From: a virus
Taxonomy: Duplodnaviria > Caudoviricetes
Length of the DNA stretch: 25,869 bases
IMG/VR virus record: IMGVR_UViG_3300044674_000385
Span: 1 to 25,869 of that record
Strand: one strand, 5' to 3'
Shown here: in pieces, positions 9,556 through 25,869 of the stretch
Position numbering within the stretch: the first letter of the stretch is position 1
How the letters are laid out: each line of letters starts with the position of its first letter
Translations under genes and position numbers: made by a program
Notes under the pieces: generated by a model
Databases searched by the model: none
What the model was told of the DNA's origin: nothing
What the model saw: the letters and a program-made list of their open reading frames with translations, nothing else

Positions 9556-9563
9556 TATTTATA
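9556..9563 (-). promoter_or_regulatory. T4 late promoter, exact consensus TATAAATA
   Basis: TATAAATA 27 nt upstream of the ATG at 9528. Confidence 0.75.
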
Positions 9564-9630
9564 CAAATATACTAAAAACACCGTTAAAAAGGATCAAGAG
9601 GTCTTTGTCACGGTCTACCATTGTTCTTAC

Positions 9631-9659
9631 AGTATAACACCTTAGAAGTGGATTGTCAA
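9631..9659 (-). promoter_or_regulatory. Sigma70 promoter
   Basis: TTGACA-17 nt-TATACT with an extended -10 TGn. Confidence 0.85.
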
Positions 9660-10526: not shown

Positions 10527-10701
10527 TGTCAAAATCCTTTTCTGAATATGTCCAATTGTCTTGATCACAGTCTTCGTACGGGTGATCTCCACCGCAGTTA
10601 TCACACTTCTGTAACTGTTGTTTGGCTGGTTTTAGTGCTACACTACCACTGTCTATGATGTGTAGTTTACGTCCTTGTTTGTCAGTCTTCCAGGTTTTCA
10701 T
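10510..10701 (-). CDS. Small zinc-knuckle-like protein
   Basis: ATG 10701 with GGAGG RBS (63 aa); CDNCGGDHPYEDC = C-x2-C-x3-H-x4-C. Confidence 0.65.
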   Translation of the reverse strand: MKTWKTDKQGRKLHIIDSGSVALKPAKQQLQKCDNCGGDHPYEDCDQDNWTYSEKDFDNGDQS

Positions 10702-11128
10702 CTTGTTCCTCCACGTATTCTTCAATGTTTACTGTTGCTTCATCAGCTTCTACCCAAGGCAGTGGCTCTGTGTTGTCTGTGTTAAATGGTGAGTCACTCA
10801 TACCTAATAGGTTTTTGGCCATAAAAATCTGTAGTGCGGCGTTCATATGCTGTGTAGCATTCTTAATCATTGCTTGACGTAGACTCATTTTAAGTTTTTC
10901 ACGCCCTTTTAGTAATTCTACGCTAAAGTTGAATCTGAGAGTATTATCATTAATACCAAACCAGTCTGCTATTTCTTTGTCCTTGAGGCCTATCTGTGCG
11001 AACTGCTCCACTTCTTCTGGTGGAACAACTGTCTTGTCACGACCTACTACAACACCATCTACTTCTTTGGTGCCCCATTTGCGATCGCCATTTTTCTGTG
11101 GTGTTGTTGGGTTGTCTACTCGTTTCAT
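10682..11128 (-). CDS. terS: Terminase small subunit
   Basis: N-terminal HTH (GLKDKEIADWFGINDNTL) followed by oligomerisation helices (GREKLKMSLRQAM...AALQIFMAKNLLGMSD). Confidence 0.75.
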   Translation of the reverse strand: MKRVDNPTTPQKNGDRKWGTKEVDGVVVGRDKTVVPPEEVEQFAQIGLKDKEIADWFGINDNTLRFNFSVELLKGREKLKMSLRQAMIKNATQHMNAALQIFMAKNLLGMSDSPFNTDNTEPLPWVEADEATVNIEEYVEEQDENLED

Positions 11129-11133
11129 ATTAC

Positions 11134-11139
11134 TATTTA
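11134..11139 (-). promoter_or_regulatory. T4-like late promoter core TAAATA, probably giving a leaderless terS mRNA
   Basis: TAAATA-GTAAT-ATG: only 5 nt before the start codon, no SD. Confidence 0.65.
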
Positions 11140-11319
11140 CCCTAGTTGCGAATTATAGGTTGTTAAACGGCTTTTATCCAGTTCAAATTGAAGTTCTAGA
11201 GGTAATCCATACAATACATAGGTATTACCTTTGGGATTGATCCAATATTTTGTGTGTTTAAATACCCAACTTATTTCATTGTATTGATCTGTGGTTAACA
11301 CAATAGATATTTGATTCAT
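11137..11319 (-). CDS. Hypothetical protein
   Basis: 60 aa, GGA RBS, fills the gap between the control region and terS. Confidence 0.55.
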   Translation of the reverse strand: MNQISIVLTTDQYNEISWVFKHTKYWINPKGNTYVLYGLPLELQFELDKSRLTTYNSQLG

Positions 11320-11328
11320 TGTTTTTCC

Positions 11329-11401
11329 AATTACTCAAAGTCAAACTGCGTTTGCCTTACTCATCACTTGCGTGATTCGTTTTGCTTACGCCTTTGTAAT
11401 T
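11329..11401 (-). other. Multi-hairpin element (GCA triloop, GCAA tetraloop); candidate single-strand initiation signal or structured leader
   Basis: Outer stem AATTAC..AAAG/CTTT..GTAATT enclosing ATCAC-GCAA-GTGAT and CAAAC-GCA-GTTTG. Confidence 0.45.
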
Positions 11402-11402
11402 G

Positions 11403-11408
11403 TATTTA
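11403..11408 (-). promoter_or_regulatory. T4-like late promoter core TAAATA
   Basis: AATAAATAC between the structured RNA and the hairpin element. Confidence 0.5.
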
Positions 11409-11414
11409 TTTGAT

Positions 11415-11721
11415 GTTACTTTCTGTAGATTGTTTCAGTCAGACGGAACCTGTTACGGTTCCATCCTCTTTCTGTGAGTTGCCCCAGACAGACATTGTGG
11501 AAGCAGGTGTTTTATGACACGTGTTCTGGGACTCTAACCTTTTCCCTACCTGCGTTGACACCCTTGCGGGCGTGTAACCTCGTTCCTATTGTTACACTGT
11601 TTGAACACGCATTGCCTGTGCGTCTTAGGATAATATTTGTATGAGGATTTACAACCCCTTCCTGTGTTTTCAATGACGCTTATATAGCCTAAGTTACTGC
11701 CTACATTTTTATTTATCTAAT
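11415..11721 (-). ncRNA. Putative ~300-nt structured RNA (candidate replication primer/origin RNA)
   Basis: No credible ORF; downstream of consensus sigma70 and TAAATA; helices 11442-50/11457-65, 11558-63/11568-73 (GCAA loop), 11572-78/11591-97, 11607-11/11619-23; crossing helices 11548-53/11503-08 and 11525-30/11483-88. Confidence 0.65.
11710..11715 (-). promoter_or_regulatory. T4-like late promoter core TAAATA, in tandem with the sigma70 promoter
   Basis: GATAAATAA 12 nt downstream of the sigma70 -10. Confidence 0.55.
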
Positions 11722-11727
11722 ATCAAT

Positions 11728-11756
11728 ATTATACTGGTTTTTTTGGCCTATGTCAA
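11728..11756 (-). promoter_or_regulatory. Sigma70 promoter, perfect consensus
   Basis: TTGACA-17 nt-TATAAT, immediately after a terminator. Confidence 0.92.
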
Positions 11757-11767
11757 GAGATTTATTC

Positions 11768-11814
11768 AAAAAAAAGGCTCCAACTACTGCCCATTGCGGG
11801 CTAGGTTAGGAGCC
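11768..11814 (-). terminator. Rho-independent terminator
   Basis: GGCTCC...GGAGCC stem with inner GCCC-GCAAT-GGGC, followed by T8. Confidence 0.8.
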
Positions 11815-11950
11815 ATAAAAACCCACGGAGAGGTTTTTTGTTAGGAGTGTTAGTTGTCAGAACTAACAAAAAGAAAAAGACAGGTAATGGCAGTAACCCT
11901 GGCAACCTTACAAACAAAACCAAGACAGGAGTGGTTGCGTCTTTCTCTTC
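11768..11950 (-). ncRNA. Putative ~180-nt regulatory sRNA with anti-SD loops
   Basis: Bounded by TAAATA (11956-61) and the terminator; outer stem AAGAGAAAGAC/GTCTTTTTCTT; several hairpins; ACUCCU twice, CUCUCC, UACUGCCAUU in loops or linkers. Confidence 0.6.
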
Positions 11951-11955
11951 ATTAG

Positions 11956-11961
11956 TATTTA
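11956..11961 (-). promoter_or_regulatory. T4-like late promoter core TAAATA
   Basis: CATAAATAC overlapping the stop of the zinc-finger gene. Confidence 0.6.
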
Positions 11962-12237
11962 TGTTTTCTTGTGATTATAGGTCAAAATATGGTTTAATTG
12001 CGTTATATTTGATAATTCAAACTCACCTGTTTTAGGATTTTTGTAATTGTTACAGGCTGTACATTTTACTTTGACGCCGTCTTTGGTATGATTATAGATT
12101 ATTCTTTGTTTGGTTACCTCTAGTTGACAGTATTCACATTGCTTAGGTATTTCTTTTAGTTTTGCTGTTCTAGGTGTTACACCATCATCTTCAAAAGATA
12201 AATCTAAACGTTCAAGTATTGCTTCTGGTATTTTCAT
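11959..12237 (-). CDS. Zinc-ribbon protein
   Basis: 92 aa, CEYC...CTAC; ATGA overlap with the upstream gene. Confidence 0.7.
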   Translation of the reverse strand: MKIPEAILERLDLSFEDDGVTPRTAKLKEIPKQCEYCQLEVTKQRIIYNHTKDGVKVKCTACNNYKNPKTGEFELSNITQLNHILTYNHKKT

Positions 12238-12500
12238 AGGAGACTCACAATAACAGCAATAAATGAACCAATGATTGTAGCTGTAGCACCAATGAGAGCA
12301 ACCATAATCTGTGTGTTACCACGTTTATGGTCGTGTTCTAATTTATCAATCTTACTGTCAAGACTGTCAAATCTAGTATCTATCTTTTTAAACTTCTCAT
12401 CCATTTGTTCTAATCGTTTATCCATTTGTTCATACCTTAAGGCACATAGGTCTACGTGAGCCTCAAGACTTTCCTTTTCAAGCTCCGTAGGTTGAGTCAT
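12234..12500 (-). CDS. Coiled-coil protein with C-terminal transmembrane helix (XhlA/holin-like)
   Basis: LEAHVDLCALRYEQMDKRLEQMDEKF heptads plus IMVALIGATATIIGSFIAVIVSLL; at the end of the tail module. Confidence 0.6.
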   Translation of the reverse strand: MTQPTELEKESLEAHVDLCALRYEQMDKRLEQMDEKFKKIDTRFDSLDSKIDKLEHDHKRGNTQIMVALIGATATIIGSFIAVIVSLL

Positions 12501-12838
12501 TAGGCACTCCTATTTTTTACGTTAAGGCGGAAGCTACGTCTATCAACGGCACCGTCTGCTGTAGTAATCTGTGCTGTAACAATGTAGGTTTTATCTACTT
12601 GTCCACCAGCTAGTTCTACATATGTATCTGTGTTTGAATCTGTTATACCACTAGATTCTATTGTTACTGGAGTGGGATCATTTCTCCTTGCGGCGACACT
12701 GTAGCTAACACTCGCTAAACTGTCTCCTTGTGCCAACCAAGTACTCCAATCAAAGGTATAGATTAATTGAGCATTTACGTCTTTGTCAATTTCTAAACCG
12801 TAATTGGTTTGGTTGAATCCACCTCTGTTAATTGGCAT
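12500..12838 (-). CDS. Tail fibre adaptor-like virion protein
   Basis: Probable start ATG 12838 with GGAG RBS (112 aa); KDVNAQLIYTFDWSTWL...LAGG...YIVTAQITT...DRRSF motif. Confidence 0.65.
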   Translation of the reverse strand: MPINRGGFNQTNYGLEIDKDVNAQLIYTFDWSTWLAQGDSLASVSYSVAARRNDPTPVTIESSGITDSNTDTYVELAGGQVDKTYIVTAQITTADGAVDRRSFRLNVKNRSA

Positions 12839-12839
12839 A

Positions 12840-15617
12840 TTAGTCTCCTTGTATTGTATATGTCCTTGTTTCTTGTGGAACTGTATACGATCTGGATTCA
12901 CTATGGATCGTAAATGTTCTTGTTTCTGCTGGTACTGTATACACATATTGATCTACGTGTATAATTCTGTAATCAATGCTAGGTGTGAACAACGCACCAA
13001 AGTTAATTACAGCATCAACCTGTTTACCAGCATTGGTTGATTGTGTAAATGTCGCAGATAGATCTGCTTCAAAATCTGTAAATGCTTCAACAGTTATGCT
13101 AGGAGTAAACGCACCACTTAGATCAATGTCAAAGTCACGTATTCTATTTACATCAACTGTTTGTGTAACAGCACTATCAAGGTCTGCTTCTACGCCTTTG
13201 ATTTGATTAGCATCAGTGCTTATTGTAAACGCACTATCTAGATCAGCACGAGCATCTTGGCTACTTGTAGCATTAGCAACAACTGTAACCGCACTAGATT
13301 GTGTACTTTGGCCTTGTTTTATAACACCAACGTCTGCGGAAATAGTTGCTCTACTCGCAAAAGCAAGGCCACCTTGAGCAATAATAATTGGATCAATGCT
13401 AAAGCTGAATATACCATCAAAGCCCATTAGGCCTTGGCCTATTTTGTTGATAGCTGTTAGTTGAGTGTTAAATGCGTCAAAGTCTGCTTCAACATCTCTA
13501 AATCTTTGTGCGTCTGTGCTTTGTGTAAACTGACTGTTTAGTGTTAAACTAATATCAACTGTTTTAGTTGCTGTTGTGCTTTGTGTAAACGCACTGTCTA
13601 GGTCAACGTCACCTGGTCTTATTCTTAGTCCATCTACAGTCTGTGTGAACGCACTGCTCATAGTCTGTTCTGCTAGACCAATAAAGCCACCTGATATGTC
13701 AACACTTAAACTTGCGGCACTTGAAAGATCAGCACTATAGTTTAGTATGAAACTTTCGTCTATGTTTTGTGTAAATGCGGCACTCAAACTTGCTTGTAGT
13801 TGAACGATCTCATTTACATCTGCGGCAAGTGTAAACGCATTGTCTAGTGCTACAAGTGTGTTGCCTATTTTGTTAATTGCTGTAACTTGACTGTTAAACG
13901 CATCAAAGTCAGCACTAAAGTCTACCAAGAAGCCTGTTTCAACACTTAGACTTGCGGCACTGTCTTGTGAACTTGTGTGATCAAATATAGCATTGGCATT
14001 ACAGGTTAGTGTGCCAGCACTTGCTTGTAGTGTAGCAAATTCAAAGATACCACCACCTAGGAAACTTAAACTAAAGGCACTGTCTAAACTTGCGGCACCT
14101 GTTAGTGTTAATCCTGTTTCGTCATTTAATGTCTGTTCAAATTGATGATATAATACTGTATCATCATCGTTTGTTATACTACTGGGTGTACCTGCTACAC
14201 CTGCTGTGCCAACTTTAAATACTACTCTATCAAAAGTAGGTTCGTTGGTTTCAAATTCAGTTGGATACAATGTAAATTGATTATAGGTTCCACCTACTAA
14301 ACTACCTGTATAGGTTGCTGAATCTGCTAAAGTGTTACCACGATACAATTCAAAATCGTTACCATTCCTTCTTAGTGTAACGTTTCCTGTTAAGGTTGTT
14401 AATGATTGGGTATCTCTTAGTTCTAGATATGTGCCATCAGATTTTTGAATCCAAGCCGTTAATTGAGAAAACGTATTGTCAACTCTAGATAAACCTATGT
14501 TAATTTTACCATCAGCATTTGGATATTTCAAAATAGGAGTTGCGGCACCTGAATCTACTATGCTGTTAAATCCGCTACCAAAACTAGCAAAAACTGTGTC
14601 ATTAAAAGTATCAACATTTGTGTCATTCTGACGGAAATACATATTGATATAGAAATCTTGTGATCCCATTGTAATGTTAGAAGTAGTTGCGGCTAAAGCA
14701 CTACCTAAATATACAAGAGGATTGTTAAGTGGTTCAACAGCATAACTGCCATAATAGGCACTTGGTGAAGGTGCTGATACAAATTGTGAACTACCTGTAT
14801 TAGTTGACCAAGAGTTTGTAAAGCCACTATATTGGTATGCTACAAAATTGTTTGGTCTACTAAAGTTAAGAGTCTTTGTTACATATTCAATTGCGTTTGT
14901 AGATTGTGTAGCAACCGCACTGATTGATGTAGAGGCACTTTGTAATTTACCTACTGTTGCTGTTAGTGTTGTTGTGACTGAGTGTGTGTTCTCTGTGAAA
15001 TCAGAGCCACCTATAGATAGTATGCCAGTGACCGCAAGTAATGTAGATGATGTGTTTAGATTTGCTTCAATGCCACGTGTGTAAGTGTCATTGGCTGTTT
15101 GCGTGAATGCTGATGAGAAGGCAGATGCGTGATCAGCAGTTTTGACGCCTTGTAAACTAAGGTTAACAATGTTATTAAGAGTGCTGTCATTATCTCTAAT
15201 TGGAGATACTGTGGCTGTCAATGTAGCACTTGAATCTAGAATCGCTGTTGAATTTAATCTGCCTACTGCTGAGAAACTTGGTGTAAACAACGCACCAAAG
15301 TCAGCTTCTAGTTGTTTGATTCTAAGACCAGTTGTGCTAATTGTGCCAGCACTGCTTAAATTACTGTCGCCTTGGTGTATTCTTGTAGCATCTACACTGA
15401 TAGTTGCTTGTGAACTTAGTGTAGCGTCTGCTTCTGTTACTGCTAGAGCAAAGTAATCTGTTTCAATATATTCAGGAATAAAGTAGCCTGTGTCATCTGC
15501 GACAGCTACTGTGAATGTTGGAGAAAAGGCACCACTAAGGCTTATTTCTGCTTCAGCTACATAACCAAAGTAGTCATCTGCGATATAATCACTTTCAAAA
15601 TAAAATTGGTCAGCCAA
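12840..15617 (-). CDS. 925-aa repetitive tail/fibre protein with an inserted lectin/LamG-like domain
   Basis: TTG start with AGGAG RBS; ~22-23-aa repeats (ADLDSAFTQT.D..RIR) flanking a ~250-aa non-repeat insert (QDFYINMYFR, LRRNGNDFELY, NDDDTVLYHQFE). Confidence 0.7.
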   Translation of the reverse strand: MADQFYFESDYIADDYFGYVAEAEISLSGAFSPTFTVAVADDTGYFIPEYIETDYFALAVTEADATLSSQATISVDATRIHQGDSNLSSAGTISTTGLRIKQLEADFGALFTPSFSAVGRLNSTAILDSSATLTATVSPIRDNDSTLNNIVNLSLQGVKTADHASAFSSAFTQTANDTYTRGIEANLNTSSTLLAVTGILSIGGSDFTENTHSVTTTLTATVGKLQSASTSISAVATQSTNAIEYVTKTLNFSRPNNFVAYQYSGFTNSWSTNTGSSQFVSAPSPSAYYGSYAVEPLNNPLVYLGSALAATTSNITMGSQDFYINMYFRQNDTNVDTFNDTVFASFGSGFNSIVDSGAATPILKYPNADGKINIGLSRVDNTFSQLTAWIQKSDGTYLELRDTQSLTTLTGNVTLRRNGNDFELYRGNTLADSATYTGSLVGGTYNQFTLYPTEFETNEPTFDRVVFKVGTAGVAGTPSSITNDDDTVLYHQFEQTLNDETGLTLTGAASLDSAFSLSFLGGGIFEFATLQASAGTLTCNANAIFDHTSSQDSAASLSVETGFLVDFSADFDAFNSQVTAINKIGNTLVALDNAFTLAADVNEIVQLQASLSAAFTQNIDESFILNYSADLSSAASLSVDISGGFIGLAEQTMSSAFTQTVDGLRIRPGDVDLDSAFTQSTTATKTVDISLTLNSQFTQSTDAQRFRDVEADFDAFNTQLTAINKIGQGLMGFDGIFSFSIDPIIIAQGGLAFASRATISADVGVIKQGQSTQSSAVTVVANATSSQDARADLDSAFTISTDANQIKGVEADLDSAVTQTVDVNRIRDFDIDLSGAFTPSITVEAFTDFEADLSATFTQSTNAGKQVDAVINFGALFTPSIDYRIIHVDQYVYTVPAETRTFTIHSESRSYTVPQETRTYTIQGD

Positions 15618-15626
15618 AGCCTACTC

Positions 15627-17195
15627 CTATTGTGCTGTGTATCTAATTAAGACGATGCCTTTACCGCCGTTGCCGCCTTCATAGGCAGTTCCTGATGAAG
15701 TAGCACCGCCAGTAGATCCTCCTCCACCGCCAGTTCCATCTGTACCACTAGGTGCTTTACTATTACTACTAGCACCATCACCGCCGCCACCTTGACCACC
15801 TGAGCCTACAGTGTTTCCTGAGCGATCAACGCCGCCGCCACCACCGCCACCAAAGTAGCCGTTGTCACCTACGCTTGTTCCAAAGTATGGTGAAGCATCA
15901 TAACCTATGCCGCCGTTGCCTCCACCACTTGATGTAGCATTGGCTCCGTTGCCTCCAGCACCACCACCGCCACCACCGTGACCGTCAGTGCTACCGCCAT
16001 AACCATCGCCACCTGCGTATGCTGTGCCTGTAGAACTAGCTCCTGATTGACCAGTGACTGATTGGCGACCATAGCCACCACCGCCACCGCCTCCAGAACT
16101 ACTAGGTGCGTAGTTATTATAAACGTGTCCGCCGTGGCCACCGCCTCCAGCTGTGTAACCAAATGCTGTTGTGTCATCGCCATTTTGTGACGGACCAGTT
16201 GAGGTTCTAAAAGTAACTTTACCACCTCTTCCTCCATCACCAATGGTGATTGAATAACCTGTGCCGTTTGTTACAGATACTGAACTTTGATAGAGGACTT
16301 CTCCTCCACCACCAGCACCACCTGAGTTGTAGTAGCTGTTGTGTTTGGATTCACCACCTCCACCACCTCCAACTAGGAGAACATCTAGGTTACCATCTGC
16401 GATAGCAGTAAATGTACCATTACTAGTAAATTCGTGAATTCTATATTCTGTTGCTCCAGCATTGTATTGGAATACATTGTTACCGCCTGTGCCTAGTGCG
16501 TTAAATGTATCATCTTCAAAAGTTGTAGATCCATCTGTGCCATTACAGTGTAGTAACATTAAGGTATCTGTGTCATTGGCAAATTCACCACTTGGAACTG
16601 TAAATCCAGCTGTGTATCTTGCTGTTGATGAAACACGAACTTCATCTATATTTCCTATAAATCCATTAGAACCTGAACTGTCTTGAGCACCTACCACAGA
16701 GTTTTGACTTTGTTGAATGCTTGGTGAACCTGTTCCTGATCCGTCTTCAGTTCCATCAATATAAATTTTGAAACTTGATCCGTTTCTTACCCAAGCAATA
16801 TGTTGCCAAGTGCTTGAAGATAGTGTGCCTGTTGAAGTAAAACTTGGACCGCCATTAATAAACAATCCTACTTGTCCTGATCCGTTCATATACATTGTAG
16901 TTCTACCTGAACTACCTGCTGAATATTGTGAAAAGAAATAGTCTACAGCACCAATTGAAGTAGGATATACCCACATCTCAACAGTCCAATCATCAGTTGC
17001 TGGTAGTATTGGTGTATCCAATAGAAGAGCATCACCAGTGCCATCAAATAAACCACTAGCACCACCAAATTTAGAAATTGCTGTGTCTACTTGTGCGTCA
17101 CCATATGCTGTAACAGTTACTGGTTCTCTACCAGTATCTCCTGCTACTGTTCCAGGGTTAGCTAATGATAAAAGTCTAGTTGCTCCTAATGGCAT
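15627..17195 (-). CDS. Tail fibre/receptor-binding protein: LamG (ConA-like) plus glycine-rich domain
   Basis: SKFGGASGLFDGTGD, DWTVEMWVYP, WQHIAWVRNG, GNIDEVRVS, then HEFTSNGTF...VLLVGGGGGG...GGNGGKGIVLIRY. Confidence 0.85.
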   Translation of the reverse strand: MPLGATRLLSLANPGTVAGDTGREPVTVTAYGDAQVDTAISKFGGASGLFDGTGDALLLDTPILPATDDWTVEMWVYPTSIGAVDYFFSQYSAGSSGRTTMYMNGSGQVGLFINGGPSFTSTGTLSSSTWQHIAWVRNGSSFKIYIDGTEDGSGTGSPSIQQSQNSVVGAQDSSGSNGFIGNIDEVRVSSTARYTAGFTVPSGEFANDTDTLMLLHCNGTDGSTTFEDDTFNALGTGGNNVFQYNAGATEYRIHEFTSNGTFTAIADGNLDVLLVGGGGGGESKHNSYYNSGGAGGGGEVLYQSSVSVTNGTGYSITIGDGGRGGKVTFRTSTGPSQNGDDTTAFGYTAGGGGHGGHVYNNYAPSSSGGGGGGGYGRQSVTGQSGASSTGTAYAGGDGYGGSTDGHGGGGGGAGGNGANATSSGGGNGGIGYDASPYFGTSVGDNGYFGGGGGGGVDRSGNTVGSGGQGGGGDGASSNSKAPSGTDGTGGGGGSTGGATSSGTAYEGGNGGKGIVLIRYTAQ

Positions 17196-18416: not shown

Positions 18417-20276
18417 TCAATCCCAGTATCCTGTAAATGTAGATACTGTGCCTGTTAATAATGTATCTCCACCACTAGGTAAAGGATCAAAACTTGTTAT
18501 AACATCAATTTGAGCACCGCCAGCACCTGTAACATTATCAATGTTTACTGTTGAGTCTATGCTTAATGCCGCACTGCTTTCACCTGGATTAGTTACACTA
18601 ATAGCAGTTGGCACTGCCGTTCCACCCACTGGTGCTCTTGGTAGTAATGCGTATTTTTTAACAGCAATGCTTTTTAGGTATTGTGTATCAGCGTCAAATG
18701 TTCCGCACCAAATTACAGGAACACTTACATAGTCGCATTCAAAGTCACCTGGTTTAGATACACTTGGTGGTATTGGTCCTGTTGTGTCATTGTTAGCAAC
18801 TTGTATGGTAACACTGTTGCTACTAACACCACAATAATCTGTAGGTTCACCTGTGTATGTAAATGTTACTACAAGATCTTCATCTTCATTATAGGTGCTG
18901 TTATCTGTGGTAACAATTGATCCTAAACTACCTGCGTTTGAAGTAATAGTAACAGTGCCAGTTAGTGCTGGCGAACTTACTTTACCACTAGCTGATCCTG
19001 TGATAGCATAGTTTATTGTGTCAGCATCATCAATACCTACAGTAGTAATATCTACACTTGTTACAGTATCTCCTTCTGTAATGCTTGTAGAACTAGCAGT
19101 TATACTAGCCGCATATTTGGTAGGAGCAGGAGATACATCATAACTTGTTGAGTTATCTCCTAGGTTTACTTGTATAGTTTTTTGTTCAGTAACAGTTGGT
19201 GTAAATGATAAACTGGCTGAATTGCCTATTGATTTGACTGTGCCTGAAAGAGGTATGTTAACTTCACTAGCAGTACATCCACTAATACTGTAATTGTAGG
19301 TATAGTCTGGAGTGTTGATAAAACATACTTCACAATCGTGTTGTGCTGTTAGTGTAATTGGTGTGCCACTACAAATAGTTGTATCAGCTGGTTCGTCGTG
19401 TGTTAGACTTGGAATCTTAGCACCTGCTTCCATTAATTCTTGGGTAGCATCGTCAGCAAATTTTAGTTCTTGTTGATTTGTTTCTGTGCCTTCATCACTT
19501 GTTAAGAAACTTCTTAACAAACCTAAACCTAGATTGGCCGCAAGTAATCTTCCCATTTGATTACCAAACGCAAAATCATCTTTTGCGTCAATGTCAGTGT
19601 TGAATACTTTAGATTTGATGCCTGTAAAATTGCTACGATATTCATATGTCAAACCAGTGTCAGTAAAAATGTTGGCATCATATTCTTGAGCAATAACACT
19701 GAAGATTAAATTGCCGTCATCAGTATCTTCTTCATCAACTTGTATAACTCTAAATAATTTGTTAGTAAAATCTAGAGCATTGTTTGTTACGTCAATTAGA
19801 TCGCCTGCCCTCAACGCATTAGCTTCAAAGTTTGCTCTAAATTCAATAATTTTATCTAGTCTACTTTGTTTTAGTTCTCTACTGGCAATAAACTTTGCCT
19901 GTGTAGGATCATTAACAGTAGGTAATTCAATTTGTAATTGGTTGTCTAGTTCTTGCGGGAATCTATCTGCTGTAGCAATGTTTAAAACTATAACATCTGT
20001 TGTGTCTCTTGTATCTCTGTTAGGAAATGTAACTTGAACACTGTTATACATTTCATTAACACCACTACCACTAAGACTTATTTCTCCAATAATATTATCA
20101 TCATCAAAACTTTTAGTGCTAGAACCAGTTGTGTTTAGAATAACGCTCCATTGACCTAGACTAGGATCCCAAGTTAAGAAACAACTACCACTTGTTGCTA
20201 TTTGATCTATATTAGCAAGAACATTGTTGCTTGTATCAATTATACCGTTAATTCTAGATTTATTATTAGTAGCCAT
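18417..20276 (-). CDS. Tail tip/central hub protein (gpJ-like, C-terminal part) with Ig/Calx-beta-like domains
   Basis: RINGIIDT, FDDDNIIGEISL, YNSVQVTFP, LRAGDLIDVT, KLFRVIQV, AQEYD; ITASSTSITEGD in the C-terminal half. Confidence 0.75.
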   Translation of the reverse strand: MATNNKSRINGIIDTSNNVLANIDQIATSGSCFLTWDPSLGQWSVILNTTGSSTKSFDDDNIIGEISLSGSGVNEMYNSVQVTFPNRDTRDTTDVIVLNIATADRFPQELDNQLQIELPTVNDPTQAKFIASRELKQSRLDKIIEFRANFEANALRAGDLIDVTNNALDFTNKLFRVIQVDEEDTDDGNLIFSVIAQEYDANIFTDTGLTYEYRSNFTGIKSKVFNTDIDAKDDFAFGNQMGRLLAANLGLGLLRSFLTSDEGTETNQQELKFADDATQELMEAGAKIPSLTHDEPADTTICSGTPITLTAQHDCEVCFINTPDYTYNYSISGCTASEVNIPLSGTVKSIGNSASLSFTPTVTEQKTIQVNLGDNSTSYDVSPAPTKYAASITASSTSITEGDTVTSVDITTVGIDDADTINYAITGSASGKVSSPALTGTVTITSNAGSLGSIVTTDNSTYNEDEDLVVTFTYTGEPTDYCGVSSNSVTIQVANNDTTGPIPPSVSKPGDFECDYVSVPVIWCGTFDADTQYLKSIAVKKYALLPRAPVGGTAVPTAISVTNPGESSAALSIDSTVNIDNVTGAGGAQIDVITSFDPLPSGGDTLLTGTVSTFTGYWD

Positions 20277-23840: not shown

Positions 23841-25869
23841 CTATCTCCCTACTGGTACTTTTCTAGCACCTTGTGATGCTACTGCGTGAATAAAGCCAGG
23901 ATCACTTGCTACTAACTGTTTGAAACTTCTAGCATCTACTGCGTTAATATTATATGTTACATTGCCTCCTCCAGCACCTAAAGGAGTAACAGTGCCTGGA
24001 CCTGATACTAGTTCAGGACCATTTTCACCAACAACACCAAATGTGCCTGCTGGTATCATACCACCATTAGCAAAGAAACCACTAAACATTCTGCCTAGTT
24101 GACTTCCTCCACCTCCAGCACCACCAAATCCACTGAATGTTTGGGCAATCAACTGTTGAATTTGACTTCTCAATAATTGTTCTAGAATATCATTGATTAG
24201 GTCTTTGAATTCTAGTTTACCTGTTTTAACAAAATTAACAATGGTATCTTCCATTCCTTTTGTAACTTTGTTAAACATTTCGCCTGCTTTCTTAGCGGCG
24301 TTTGTAGCATTGTCTTGATAACTTTGGAATGCTTCTTTCCAACCATATTCAAATGAACGTTGATATTCTCTTTGTTGTTTGGCAGTTTCAGTTATCTTTT
24401 CAAATGCTTTTGTTGCTTCATTTTCTAGAATTTTGATTTCAGCAAGGTATTGATCAGTTGTAATTAAACCATCTTCCCATAGGTATTTGATCTTTCTAAT
24501 ACTTGCCGCTAGTTTATCATCAATACTACGACGTATACCTTCAAGTTCTCTTTGAAATGGTGTTAGTTTAAGATCTTGTAGAGCATTATCTGCTTCTCTG
24601 ATCATATCATTAAAGTCTTGTTGTAACTTTCTATGATTGTCAGTTAACAGTATACTTGCTTCTTGCTGTTGACGTATTTCTTCACGTAACTCTAGTTCTT
24701 GTCTTAAACCGCCTAGTGTTTCATTATACAGATCAGTAATTAAACCAATTTGCTTTTCAATCTCATCTGCTTGTGCTCTGCTTTCTTGAGTGTCTTTTGC
24801 TCTTAATTCTGTAATTTCTCTTTGTAAAGGATTAATTGTGTTATAATATCTTTGTGTGAAGGCATTTAATTCTCTTTGAACATTGGCTTGACTTTCTGTC
24901 ATCTTTAACAATTTGCCTTCTTGTTCAACAGATAATTTTAACGCATTTACACCTTCTTCATAGGTAGCAAAGTAATCAATAGCACTTTTTGTTACTTCGT
25001 CTTGTTTATTTTTTAATTCTTCTAGTTGAGCTCTAAAATCTGTAGTAGCACCAGCATCAACTTCAGGTGCTTGTGTTAGAGGTCCATCTGGAATTTGAAA
25101 TGCGTCGCCTTGATTTTTAAGGTTTTCTAAATCTTCACCTAGTTTTTTAATTGCGTCAGATGATTCAGATGTAGCTTCTTCAATTTGATCAACAATCACT
25201 AATGCGGCCGTAACACCTGCGGCAACTTTTACTAAACCAACACCTGTAACACCTTGTAACAAGGCACCTGCTGTTGCCGCTTTCCTAAATCCATCAGCAA
25301 GTTGTAGAACACTGCCTGCTATGTTTAAGATTACGCCTGCTGTAGCGTATGTAAACACACCACCAATAATAGCGGCAAGATATTTTAAGTTTTCAACTAG
25401 GAATGTAATTGTAGCACCAAAGCCAGCACCTAGTGTTTCAATTAATTCATTATTTTTTTCTATGAAAGCAGTTATGCTAAAAACTGCTTGTGTTAACGCA
25501 TCATTAAAACCGCCTTCACCAAAAGTATCTGCCGCACCTTGTAATGCGTCACCTAGGTTACTAAATGCTTGACTTAGATTGTTGGCTCTTTGTTCAGAAG
25601 AACCACTAAATGTTTCACTTAGTCCTTCTTCTAAAGCACGTAGGATAATTTGTGCTCCTTCAGCACTTTGTCCTAATTTTGAAATTTCTAATCTACTGAT
25701 TCCTAGTTTTTCTGCTAGGATTGTGAATACAGGAATACCTCTATCACCTAATCTGTTTAAATCTTCTAGTCCTAATCCACCAGCAGTTGTTCTAGCATAC
25801 AAATCAGTTATGGCCTGTAAAGCACCAACACTATCTGCGGAAACACTTGCTACATCAGCAAATAAACGT
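23841..25869 (-). CDS. Tape measure protein, main part (N-terminus at 498..1)
   Basis: LEDLNRLGDRGIPV tape-measure domain, long coiled coil, lambda gpH-like C-terminus (GWKEAFQSY...FVKTGKLEFKDL...FANGG...VVGENGPEL). Confidence 0.93.
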   Translation of the reverse strand, partial: RLFADVASVSADSVGALQAITDLYARTTAGGLGLEDLNRLGDRGIPVFTILAEKLGISRLEISKLGQSAEGAQIILRALEEGLSETFSGSSEQRANNLSQAFSNLGDALQGAADTFGEGGFNDALTQAVFSITAFIEKNNELIETLGAGFGATITFLVENLKYLAAIIGGVFTYATAGVILNIAGSVLQLADGFRKAATAGALLQGVTGVGLVKVAAGVTAALVIVDQIEEATSESSDAIKKLGEDLENLKNQGDAFQIPDGPLTQAPEVDAGATTDFRAQLEELKNKQDEVTKSAIDYFATYEEGVNALKLSVEQEGKLLKMTESQANVQRELNAFTQRYYNTINPLQREITELRAKDTQESRAQADEIEKQIGLITDLYNETLGGLRQELELREEIRQQQEASILLTDNHRKLQQDFNDMIREADNALQDLKLTPFQRELEGIRRSIDDKLAASIRKIKYLWEDGLITTDQYLAEIKILENEATKAFEKITETAKQQREYQRSFEYGWKEAFQSYQDNATNAAKKAGEMFNKVTKGMEDTIVNFVKTGKLEFKDLINDILEQLLRSQIQQLIAQTFSGFGGAGGGGSQLGRMFSGFFANGGMIPAGTFGVVGENGPELVSGPGTVTPLGAGGGNVTYNINAVDARSFKQLVASDPGFIHAVASQGARKVPVGR
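25689..25869. repeat. Terminal direct repeat, right copy
   Basis: 179/181 identical to 1-181. Confidence 0.97.

Follow-up and report, generated by a model that had tools for sequence, protein, structure and literature searches.

A structured noncoding element with matching repeats as a candidate RNA-primed replication origin in small tailed phages and T4-like jumbo phages

In the genome of a small tailed phage, a noncoding element on the minus strand comprises, in this order, a promoter, a predicted folded RNA, a candidate guide displayed in a loop, a matching candidate target, A+T-rich DNA, and single-strand hairpins. This order of parts parallels the anatomy of the ColE1 and T4 origins. By analogy with these systems, the element may be an RNA-primed origin run by the replisome of a jumbo-phage helper, a reading on which we are evenly divided. 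A first-pass annotation of the window (the whole stretch of DNA analyzed, 25,869 nt) had already suggested an origin or primer RNA; the fold and a ColE1-like repeat signature speak for this suggestion, while the GC skew does not support it. The features are listed in Table 1.

Table 1. Features of the element and its surroundings in the window, and cassettes carried by relatives (locus named with the position).
Feature	Position	Strand	Remarks
92-aa ORF with two CxxC pairs	11959..12237	-	last upstream gene; borders the slot in relatives too
Sigma-70-type promoter, TTGACA-17-TATAAT	11728..11756	-	12/12 consensus
GATAAATA, T4 late-promoter-like motif	11710..11717	-	counterpart TATAAATA in L005, L007, L263
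5' domain of the predicted RNA	11598..11706	-	conserved blocks in four near homologues; shorter than the jumbo form
7-bp hairpin GUGUAAC/GUUACAC with conserved GGAACGAG loop	11572..11597	-	stems 11597-91/11578-72
Pseudoknot core	11503..11556	-	AAC/GUU crosses GCAGGU/ACCUGC and GGGA/UCCC
Copy 1 of the imperfect 26-nt repeat	11468..11493	-	ACAGAAA (11475-69), the proposed guide
9-bp hairpin GAUGGAACC/GGUUCCGUC between the heptamers	11442..11465	-	11465-57/11450-42; 97.7% paired in homologues, its center being part of the search pattern
Copy 2 of the repeat	11419..11444	-	CU-ACAGAAA (11428-20), which on the template strand is the proposed DNA target
A+T-rich stretch, candidate unwinding element	11392..11418	-	A+T 0.73 in the 30 nt tested
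Mini-hairpin module	11343..11391	-	GC-GTAA-GC, ATCAC-GCAA-GTGAT, AAAC-GCA-GTTT
Terminase small subunit (TerS)	10682..11128	-	first long downstream gene; phrog_309, E 6e-8
Type B cassette	L402:2990-3440, L033:390-840		window's 5' domain, divergent cores
Type C cassette	L047:4460-4830, L025:6140-6460, L555-L563		9/9 pattern matches in small phages
Type D cassette	L070:460-900, L050:2640-3050	-	opposite strand
Type E cassette	L405:1520-2000		

Genome setting, promoters, and predicted fold

Once its ends are merged, the window is a circle of 25,688 bp. The terminal overlap of 181 nt (1-181 and 25689-25869; 2 mismatches) lies inside the tape-measure gene, and contigs from runs X1 and X2 bridge position 20000 to position 1 via 5,688 letters. 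The genome is complete, though the record is listed as linear and 91% complete. All long ORFs are carried by the minus strand, with a siphovirus-like virion module that encodes terminase small and large subunits, portal, scaffold, capsid, neck, tape-measure, and tail proteins. Among the 32 window ORFs scanned, none matched a polymerase, helicase, primase, Rep, integrase, or lysin family; 15 of the 32 had no PHROG match and could hide an initiator. The family searches and the closed circle thus bear out the earlier remark that recognizable replication genes are missing. The element lies in the largest gap between long ORFs of this genome (830 nt, 11129-11958), directly upstream of the TerS gene, and the flanking 500-nt windows have an A+T content of 0.61-0.62. 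The CxxC ORF on its other side matched no family at the cutoff. A further gap, of 281 nt, has a two-promoter layout like that of the element, with a second sigma-70 site (11/12; 9631-9659, minus strand) followed by TATAAATA (9562-9569, minus strand), and precedes a 169-aa ORF, an FkbM methyltransferase gene, and an endonuclease VII-like gene.

The perfect sigma-70 promoter noted in the first-pass annotation is present, with TTGACA at 11756-51 and TATAAT at 11733-28; about 0.04 perfect matches are expected per window. The tandem TAAATA motif that had been read next to it was also found, as GATAAATA at 11717-10. The T4 late-promoter consensus is TATAAATA. The element is preceded by TAAATA, with a sigma-70-like site some 40 nt farther upstream, in 5 of 9 small-phage loci, and in seven small-phage stretches ATAAATA occurs 29 times on the coding strand versus 2 times on the other. 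The sigma-70 site is perfect in the window, but the conserved feature is the late-type TAAATA, or the pair of a sigma-70 site and TAAATA. Between 11216 and 12008, a consensus scan listed no promoter on the plus strand from which an antisense counterpart of ColE1 RNA I could start. The window yielded no sigma gene; the jumbo phage G002 encodes a late sigma factor.

Taken alone, the window sequence gave weak signals: the folding z was -1.94 on the minus strand and -1.56 on the plus strand, and an exact repeat of at least 8 nt arose in 267 of 500 shuffles. It is the comparison with homologues that makes the predicted fold and the repeat real. In an alignment of 49 of the 81 dereplicated cores, we detected 95.6% pairing in a 22-pair core, a structure that was derived from the same sequences and was partly fixed by the search pattern (which held one strand of GCAGGU/ACCUGC and the center of the 3' hairpin). 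Compensatory changes were found across the homologues, in 70 cells versus 15.5 in shuffles (0/500 as high), and when the core was slid out of register, pairing was at most 47%. The top mutual-information pairs fall in the pseudoknot core. There, GCAGGU/ACCUGC (11553-48/11508-03) is paired in 97.6% of the cells, AAC/GUU (11556-54/11538-36) in 93.9%, and GGGA/UCCC (11546-43/11531-28) in 89.3%, each with compensatory changes. The AAC/GUU helix is the best-supported piece, lying outside the search pattern and showing two-sided changes in all three pairs. A pseudoknot had been suggested before, formed by GCAGGU/ACCUGC and CCCAGA/UCUGGG. The former helix is conserved, but CCCAGA/UCUGGG was rejected because only 30.4% of the homologue cells are paired, and the conserved crossing partner is AAC/GUU.

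The remaining helices that had been read from the window (GUGUAAC/GUUACAC, GAUGGAACC/GGUUCCGUC, and the ACGCCC-GCAA-GGGUGU hairpin at 11573-58) are present. The first of them is kept in the sense that stems of 3-7 bp and of differing sequence surround a constant GGAACGAG loop (88 distinct homologues; the loop motif was not found in 7 loci). An HMM of the 5' domain did not match the window. One homologous copy, L291, lacks the whole pseudoknot core, between the GGAACGAA hairpin and the sequence before copy 1, by natural deletion or misassembly. The element includes the stretch first delimited but continues past its start to about 11340, the mini-hairpin module.

Among 1,053 cells, G-U pairs on the minus strand exceed A-C pairs 78 to 5, in line with the previous statement that the noncanonical pairs are G-U on this strand. 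This fixes the strand, but not the choice between RNA and single-stranded DNA, which according to PMC5737381 cannot be separated by G-U evidence.

Matching repeats as candidate guide and target

As had been pointed out, ACAGAAAG occurs twice (11475-68 and 11426-19), within copies 1 and 2 of the imperfect repeat, and in the window copy 1 provides the loop of CUC-ACAGAAA-GAG. The strongest covariation in the alignment is identity between the repeats, not complementarity. The heptamers, which are absent from all search patterns, are identical in 80 of 81 dereplicated homologues, with 14 variants; the homologues are related, so this count, like that of the wobble rows below, overstates the number of independent events. 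When heptamers were dealt at random, a mean of 31.1 and a maximum of 42 were identical (10,000 shuffles). The sole mismatch, L088, has an 8-nt repeat in a different register. Furthermore, the identity rule also holds in divergent cores found via the 5' motif (L316, L321, L330, L333, L343, L350, and L355). The distance between the copies ranges from 49 to 68 nt and shows no helical phasing.

Copy 1 contains one base more than copy 2. When this extra base is skipped, two further positions match in 79/80 and 80/80 homologues, including three joint changes, and the next base is G in copy 1 and A in copy 2 in 33/80, while the reverse (A/G) occurs in 0/80. When G-T and U-G wobbles were scored over 28-30 nt, copy 1 on the copy-2 template outscored the reverse in 63 of 66 rows; the reverse was better in 2 rows, and 1 was a tie. 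Of the 66 rows, 2 were wrong picks (uL287 and uL312); the 197 segments included 3 in which no repeat was found, and the repeat finder itself required the one-base skip. In the window, the duplex energies (-28.2 versus -22.3 kcal/mol, RNA parameters) are likewise in favor of copy 1 on the copy-2 template. The wobble bias could partly reflect constraints that the fold places on copy 1 in the RNA.

A third site, complementary to the heptamer, was rejected, since within -450..+300 an exact complement occurs in 1 of 58 loci only; wobble-tolerant complements were found in 14 loci, at scattered positions. The lack of a consistent complementary site in this range suggests that the partner of the heptamer is not in the RNA. 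The simplest reading of these comparisons is that the sense-strand copy 1 would pair with the antisense strand at copy 2. A 7-letter stretch that almost always equals a downstream site makes it likely that the predicted RNA sticks to its own DNA. The homologues thereby point to a ColE1-like signature, in which a stretch of the upstream RNA would match the downstream template strand.

A short guide that is displayed in a loop and covaries with a DNA site is known from the IS110 bridge RNA and from EBS1 of group II introns. In contrast to these systems, no recombinase, maturase, or reverse transcriptase gene lies near the element, and the target would be its own downstream DNA. The likeness to EBS1 raises the alternative that the pseudoknot core is a ribozyme whose 7-nt guide loop directs nicking or joining of the template at the bulge, with no RNase H step. 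Such an activity would suit the compact and highly conserved core, the covarying pseudoknot, a possible base triple (columns 23-35-40), the constant one-base bulge, and the placement of the guide in a 7-nt loop, preceded by C in 76/80 and followed by G in 76/80. However, no Rfam ribozyme or intron model matched, part of the core conservation was imposed by the search pattern, and cassette types B and C keep the repeats with different folds, which argues for pairing rather than for one catalytic fold. We consider a ribozyme quite improbable.

The DNA that follows copy 2 is A+T-rich, with a mean of 0.70 over 60 nt in the homologues. In the window it is followed by the mini-hairpin module, a candidate single-strand signal on the displaced strand, which contains 2 of the 4 such mini-hairpins of the whole minus strand. 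C-G-closed mini-hairpins with GNA or GNNA loops were detected within 200 nt in 41 of 68 homologues, at a density per 200 nt of 0.65, which compares with 0.24 for the opposite strand and 0.009 for coding DNA upstream. GNA loops account for 36 of the 44 downstream hairpins (GTA 19, GAA 14), and three-base loops of this kind are typical of stable DNA hairpins.

Their dominance would also be expected if the element acted as DNA, either by strand slippage that extrudes hairpins or through a protein on the two repeats, with the promoter only opening the duplex. Slipped pairing would yield the identical wobble direction, and according to PMC5737381, G-T wobble and covariation fit single-stranded DNA equally well. 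Against this, tandem promoters point into the element in 5/9 small-phage loci, the upstream multidomain fold of 300-450 nt would be hard to extrude from a duplex, and repeats bound by a protein would not be expected to show unphased spacing or perfect identity across 14 variants. An action as DNA is therefore, in our judgment, very unlikely.

Distribution, neighboring genes, and the exchangeable slot

The element is present in an estimated 630-870 IMG/VR stretches: 120 matches of an estimated 630 were listed for the gapped core pattern, and 120 of an estimated 870 for the independent 5'-domain pattern. The 19-nt core motif was found in 11 viral stretches. These searches bear out the earlier suggestion that large aquatic phages have similar sequence in their genomes. 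The core matches, 133 when duplicates of one contig are counted, comprise 84 in a jumbo context, 10 in small phages, and 39 of unassigned context; five of the latter belong to records with an expected size of about 30 kb. The small carriers are tailed phages of 24-30 kb without polymerase or helicase matches. In four runs that contain the window's phage, many other contigs share the 30- to 40-nt core, and some of them extend into jumbo-type flanks. Among the 24 runs listed as holders, none was an RNA data set, which has no bearing on expression.

In T4-like jumbo records the element is single copy (5/5). The gene order is late sigma factor, SbcD-like, SbcC-like, small ORF, nuclease or resolvase, element, and a converging baseplate-hub gene; we take the late sigma, SbcD-like, SbcC-like, and baseplate-hub genes to be the counterparts of T4 gp55, gp47, gp46, and gp26. 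The gene just upstream of the element encodes a GIY-YIG-type nuclease (name from the record annotation) or a RusA-like resolvase. A search anchored on the SbcC-like gene gave 43 of 80 loci with 1.8 kb downstream. The core is present in 36 of these and its 5' part in 1; the other 6 stop at the RNA start or ahead of it, owing to the insertion of a 550-aa gene. Similarly, in the 5'-motif-anchored search, the core was recognized by HMM in 59 of 65 full-length loci. L312, L323, L327, and L338 share the 5' domain and have a different core; an 11-nt direct repeat around a hairpin was seen by eye in L312. Numerous jumbo contigs (L475-L554) stop at the element or within it; the probable cause is a break in the assembly graph where co-occurring phages have the 30- to 40-nt core in common, although physical DNA ends at the element are possible in these contigs.

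Blastn searches of 50,697 named phage records with three variants revealed no real match and no cultured carrier, and one variant gave short chance matches only among the 72,556 plasmids of PLSDB. In 185,579 GTDB species genomes there were 2 pattern matches, one a true element on a phage-like contig (L565) and one a chance match inside an ORF (L564), and no sign of prophage carriage. The comparison with Rfam 15 brought up no known RNA class: nothing matched in the window at E <= 1, and 12 related loci gave, at E <= 2, a single miRNA match far below threshold. No covariance-model match was obtained for ARRPOF, PAGEV, GEBRO, HEARO, GOLLD, ROOL, group I/II introns, RNase P, or small ribozymes. 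A full-text literature search, which covered journals outside subscription, found no description of the element, and none is contained in the part of the Minerva preprint that was available. Six core motifs are absent from six supplementary files of PMC10690425, and the RNA may be among the 10,000 unnamed candidates of that study.

Between the CxxC ORF and TerS, close relatives carry other cassettes (types B to E, Table 1), which are four further structured cassettes outside Rfam. The type B carrier L402 has a capsid 89% identical to that of the window. Types B and C have their own direct repeats around a hairpin and share the downstream mini-hairpin module, and the copies of type C change together, with TTTTCCAAG present twice in 5/9 and AGTTCAAG twice in 4/9. 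None of the jumbo loci examined contained type C, D, or E. In G009, type D and the window's type are arranged in tandem, against the gene direction. In a tree, the small-phage elements fall in at least 4 places among the jumbo ones (4 changes); in a one-clade test, a single origin of the small-phage elements was not rejected (p-AU 0.13).

The window's type was detected in 5 of 6 small genomes that are at least 90% complete, four of which were chosen knowing that they carried the element; of the blind pair, G009 has it and G008 does not. The complete G008 (terminal repeats) contains no cassette of types A to E by HMM, and the family can thus apparently do without the element. The slot of G008 (L271:1290-2431) holds two divergent unknown ORFs and an adjoining 16-nt tandem repeat, and the element-less relatives L080 and L071 (1688-2536) also have divergently transcribed unknown ORFs in the slot. 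These divergent ORFs are a candidate protein-initiated replicon. The slot proteins L271:1347-1859 and L071:1691-2536 gave no Pfam, PHROG, Atlas, or PDB-sequence lead; the former has 50 homologues and a predicted model with a pLDDT of 88.

Small basic ORFs lie directly upstream of cassettes at L047:4120-4468, L025:5843-6149, L050:3006-3350, L109:4354-4620, and L273:166-402. Their kind tracks the RNA type, with EQxQLxGYW before types C and D and NPxxGFDKAWH before types A and B and some jumbo elements. They are absent from the window, and the three scanned had no Pfam match; possibly, they encode RNA-binding partners. In addition, runs of short ORFs, each ending in GAGGAGACAGCG(T)AATG, occur upstream of TerS in L025 (6930-8030), L051, L058, L079, and L080 and form a cassette-like gene array.

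The neighboring genes bear on another explanation, that an RNA-guided hybrid marks a cutting site where a nuclease, a resolvase, or the terminase cuts the R-loop for packaging or recombination-dependent replication. TerS follows the element in the window and in L007, L048, L088, L103, L111, and L143, the jumbo nuclease or resolvase gene is located just upstream, and a late-type promoter suits a late function. Moreover, contigs that start at 11436 and end at 16.7-17.0 kb (window 11436-17008) are 1.5-1.9 times deeper (159 versus 90-104 in X1; 105 versus 56-62 in X2), as terminal redundancy beside a packaging start would give. However, X4 and X5 show no clean depth step at the element, the deeper contig includes a GC-rich gene at 15.5-16.5 kb, and X1 and X2 may be source samples; the step could reflect a packaging start or base-composition bias. 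The element is also far from TerS in G010 and G011 and reversed in G009, and small phages that own a terminase would have no clear use for a borrowed jumbo packaging signal. We regard a cutting site as unlikely.

In the window, the element heads the packaging-head operon, which would fit a regulatory RNA that acts by antitermination or pausing on the late operon. An alternative of the same group is that the RNA is copied into repeats by template jumping, in the manner of telomerase or DRT2, since terminal redundancy of a template also yields identity covariation. The downstream genes, however, differ between jumbos and small phages, which speaks against a regulatory role. The reverse transcriptase-template or concatemer model (retron, DRT2, telomerase-like) was rejected: RVT_1 matched in 0/5 records, viral contigs contain no tandem unit copies, and no joint between copies was seen in the contigs examined, which drop rare forms. 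For a regulatory RNA or template we see only a slight chance.

Proposed mechanism and relation to known origins

PolB, a DnaB-type helicase, and a 5'-3' exonuclease were detected in 2/2 jumbos and 0/3 small genomes. The Pfam families RNase_H and RNaseH_C were found in 0/5 records. The window and the complete G008 and G010 have virion genes and no replication genes, unannotated ORFs aside. By its gene content, the window's phage fits the profile of a satellite that has its own virion genes and no recognizable replication genes. A helper replisome is proposed because the complete 25.7-kb genome lacks such genes. Since jumbos carry the same single element together with genes for polymerase, helicase, and late sigma, we see in the small phage a presumed satellite that would use a copy of its helper's origin.

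We propose the following course of events. The host polymerase would start at the sigma-70 site, or the late polymerase of the helper at GATAAATA, a motif that is present and whose use is presumed. The RNA of about 300 nt would fold its pseudoknot core, for which covariation was observed, and present copy 1 in a loop. In the wake of the polymerase, this copy would pair with the copy-2 template strand 49 nt downstream, with one base bulged, and this pairing may reach about 26 nt via G-T and U-G wobbles; we infer the hybrid from the identity covariation and the wobble direction. The hybrid would then persist into the A+T-rich stretch, as ColE1 and T4 oriF suggest by analogy, and a 5'-3' exonuclease or RNase H would trim it to a primer. 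The displaced strand would fold the mini-hairpins, at which helicase and primase may load, again by analogy, and the replication proteins of a co-infecting T4-like jumbo would extend the R-loop.

The element would thus work like ColE1 RNA II on a T4-type replisome and is a member of neither family nor of an Rfam family. In ColE1, the hybrid persists only if the rG stretch of the transcript contacts a dC stretch in the template (PMC4412123), and the displaced strand loads the helicase (PMC5043065); the latter source still calls the start of the persistent hybrid speculative. The element resembles RNA II in its predicted promoter-driven folded RNA and in an upstream stretch that would pair with the downstream template. 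ColE1 encodes no initiator; in the window no Rep match was found, and the 15 ORFs outside PHROG families may include an initiator. It differs in its occurrence in phage genomes, in having no sequence match in PLSDB or Rfam, and in having, in place of the G run, a lineage-variable, mixed-sequence 7-mer in a pseudoknotted RNA of about 300-450 nt.

According to PMC3016281, T4 origins combine a promoter with an A+T-rich unwinding element, and any plasmid that has a preformed R-loop in this element is a template for the T4 replisome. They are described there as about 100 bp long, with MotA middle promoters that are shut off late and no need for a specific R-loop sequence. Like oriF and oriG, the element has a promoter followed by an A+T-rich candidate unwinding element in T4-like phages, and its jumbo carriers have T4-type polymerase, helicase, and RNase H-family exonuclease. 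In contrast to oriF and oriG, it has a conserved fold, a matched guide and target, and one copy per record, and its sigma-70 and late-type motifs and sequence-constrained fold and repeats differ from a MotA middle promoter with a sequence-independent R-loop.

The plasmid motifs ARRPOF, PAGEV, and GEBRO are structured, average 223-349 nt, and lie in replication regions; ARRPOF is in a region that still replicates when its rep gene is absent (Weinberg 2017; PMC5737381). They share with the element the long structured form, while the element is in phages and without an Rfam match. The satellites Ando, MulchRoom, MiniFlayer, Phanie, and cf-PICIs have virion parts, lack lysis and replication genes, and rely on helpers, according to PMC13587820. 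Ando, MulchRoom, and cf-PICIs borrow tails and integrate, whereas the window genome encodes head, tape measure, and tail and has no integrase match. Unlike the named satellites, the window's phage, whose helper dependence is presumed, shares a noncoding element with its candidate helpers.

The GC skew had been put forward as a check of the origin, and it provides no independent mark. The total skew follows the coding strand and turns 5-6 kb upstream of the element, at the switch in gene orientation (3/3 jumbos). At four-fold sites, the element-sense strand is C-rich, opposite to the usual G excess of the leading strand, and in G009, where the element runs against the genes, the four-fold skew (-0.26) does not flip, compared to -0.16 to -0.43 in five same-sense genomes. 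The skew was rejected as an origin marker, being confounded by gene orientation. Further observations count against an RNA-primed origin: G008 lacks the element, and the conserved promoter motif of the element looks late, whereas T4 origins are shut off late. Together, the cutting-site, ribozyme, DNA-structure, and regulatory explanations hold about half of the probability.

A wider reading, which we put forward tentatively and think somewhat doubtful, is that of a re-addressable family of RNA-guided origins, in which a loop of 7-9 nt opens, and perhaps nicks, its own DNA, and satellites swap jumbo-derived cassettes. As part of this reading, a widespread class of satellites of 24-30 kb with complete tails would plug into the replisome and late sigma of the helper, having no replication protein of their own and taking up the cassettes repeatedly from jumbos.

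To our knowledge, hardly any replication origin has been mapped in the large T4-like phages of aquatic habitats. In these phages, 14 guide variants, each matched by its target, amount to a natural swap experiment, and guide, target, and bulge of this compact system can be altered individually. If the proposed origin is true, the origin of an abundant jumbo-phage clade would be defined, a short programmable RNA that seeds R-loops would be at hand, and satellites that encode their own heads and tails would parasitize replication rather than virion parts.
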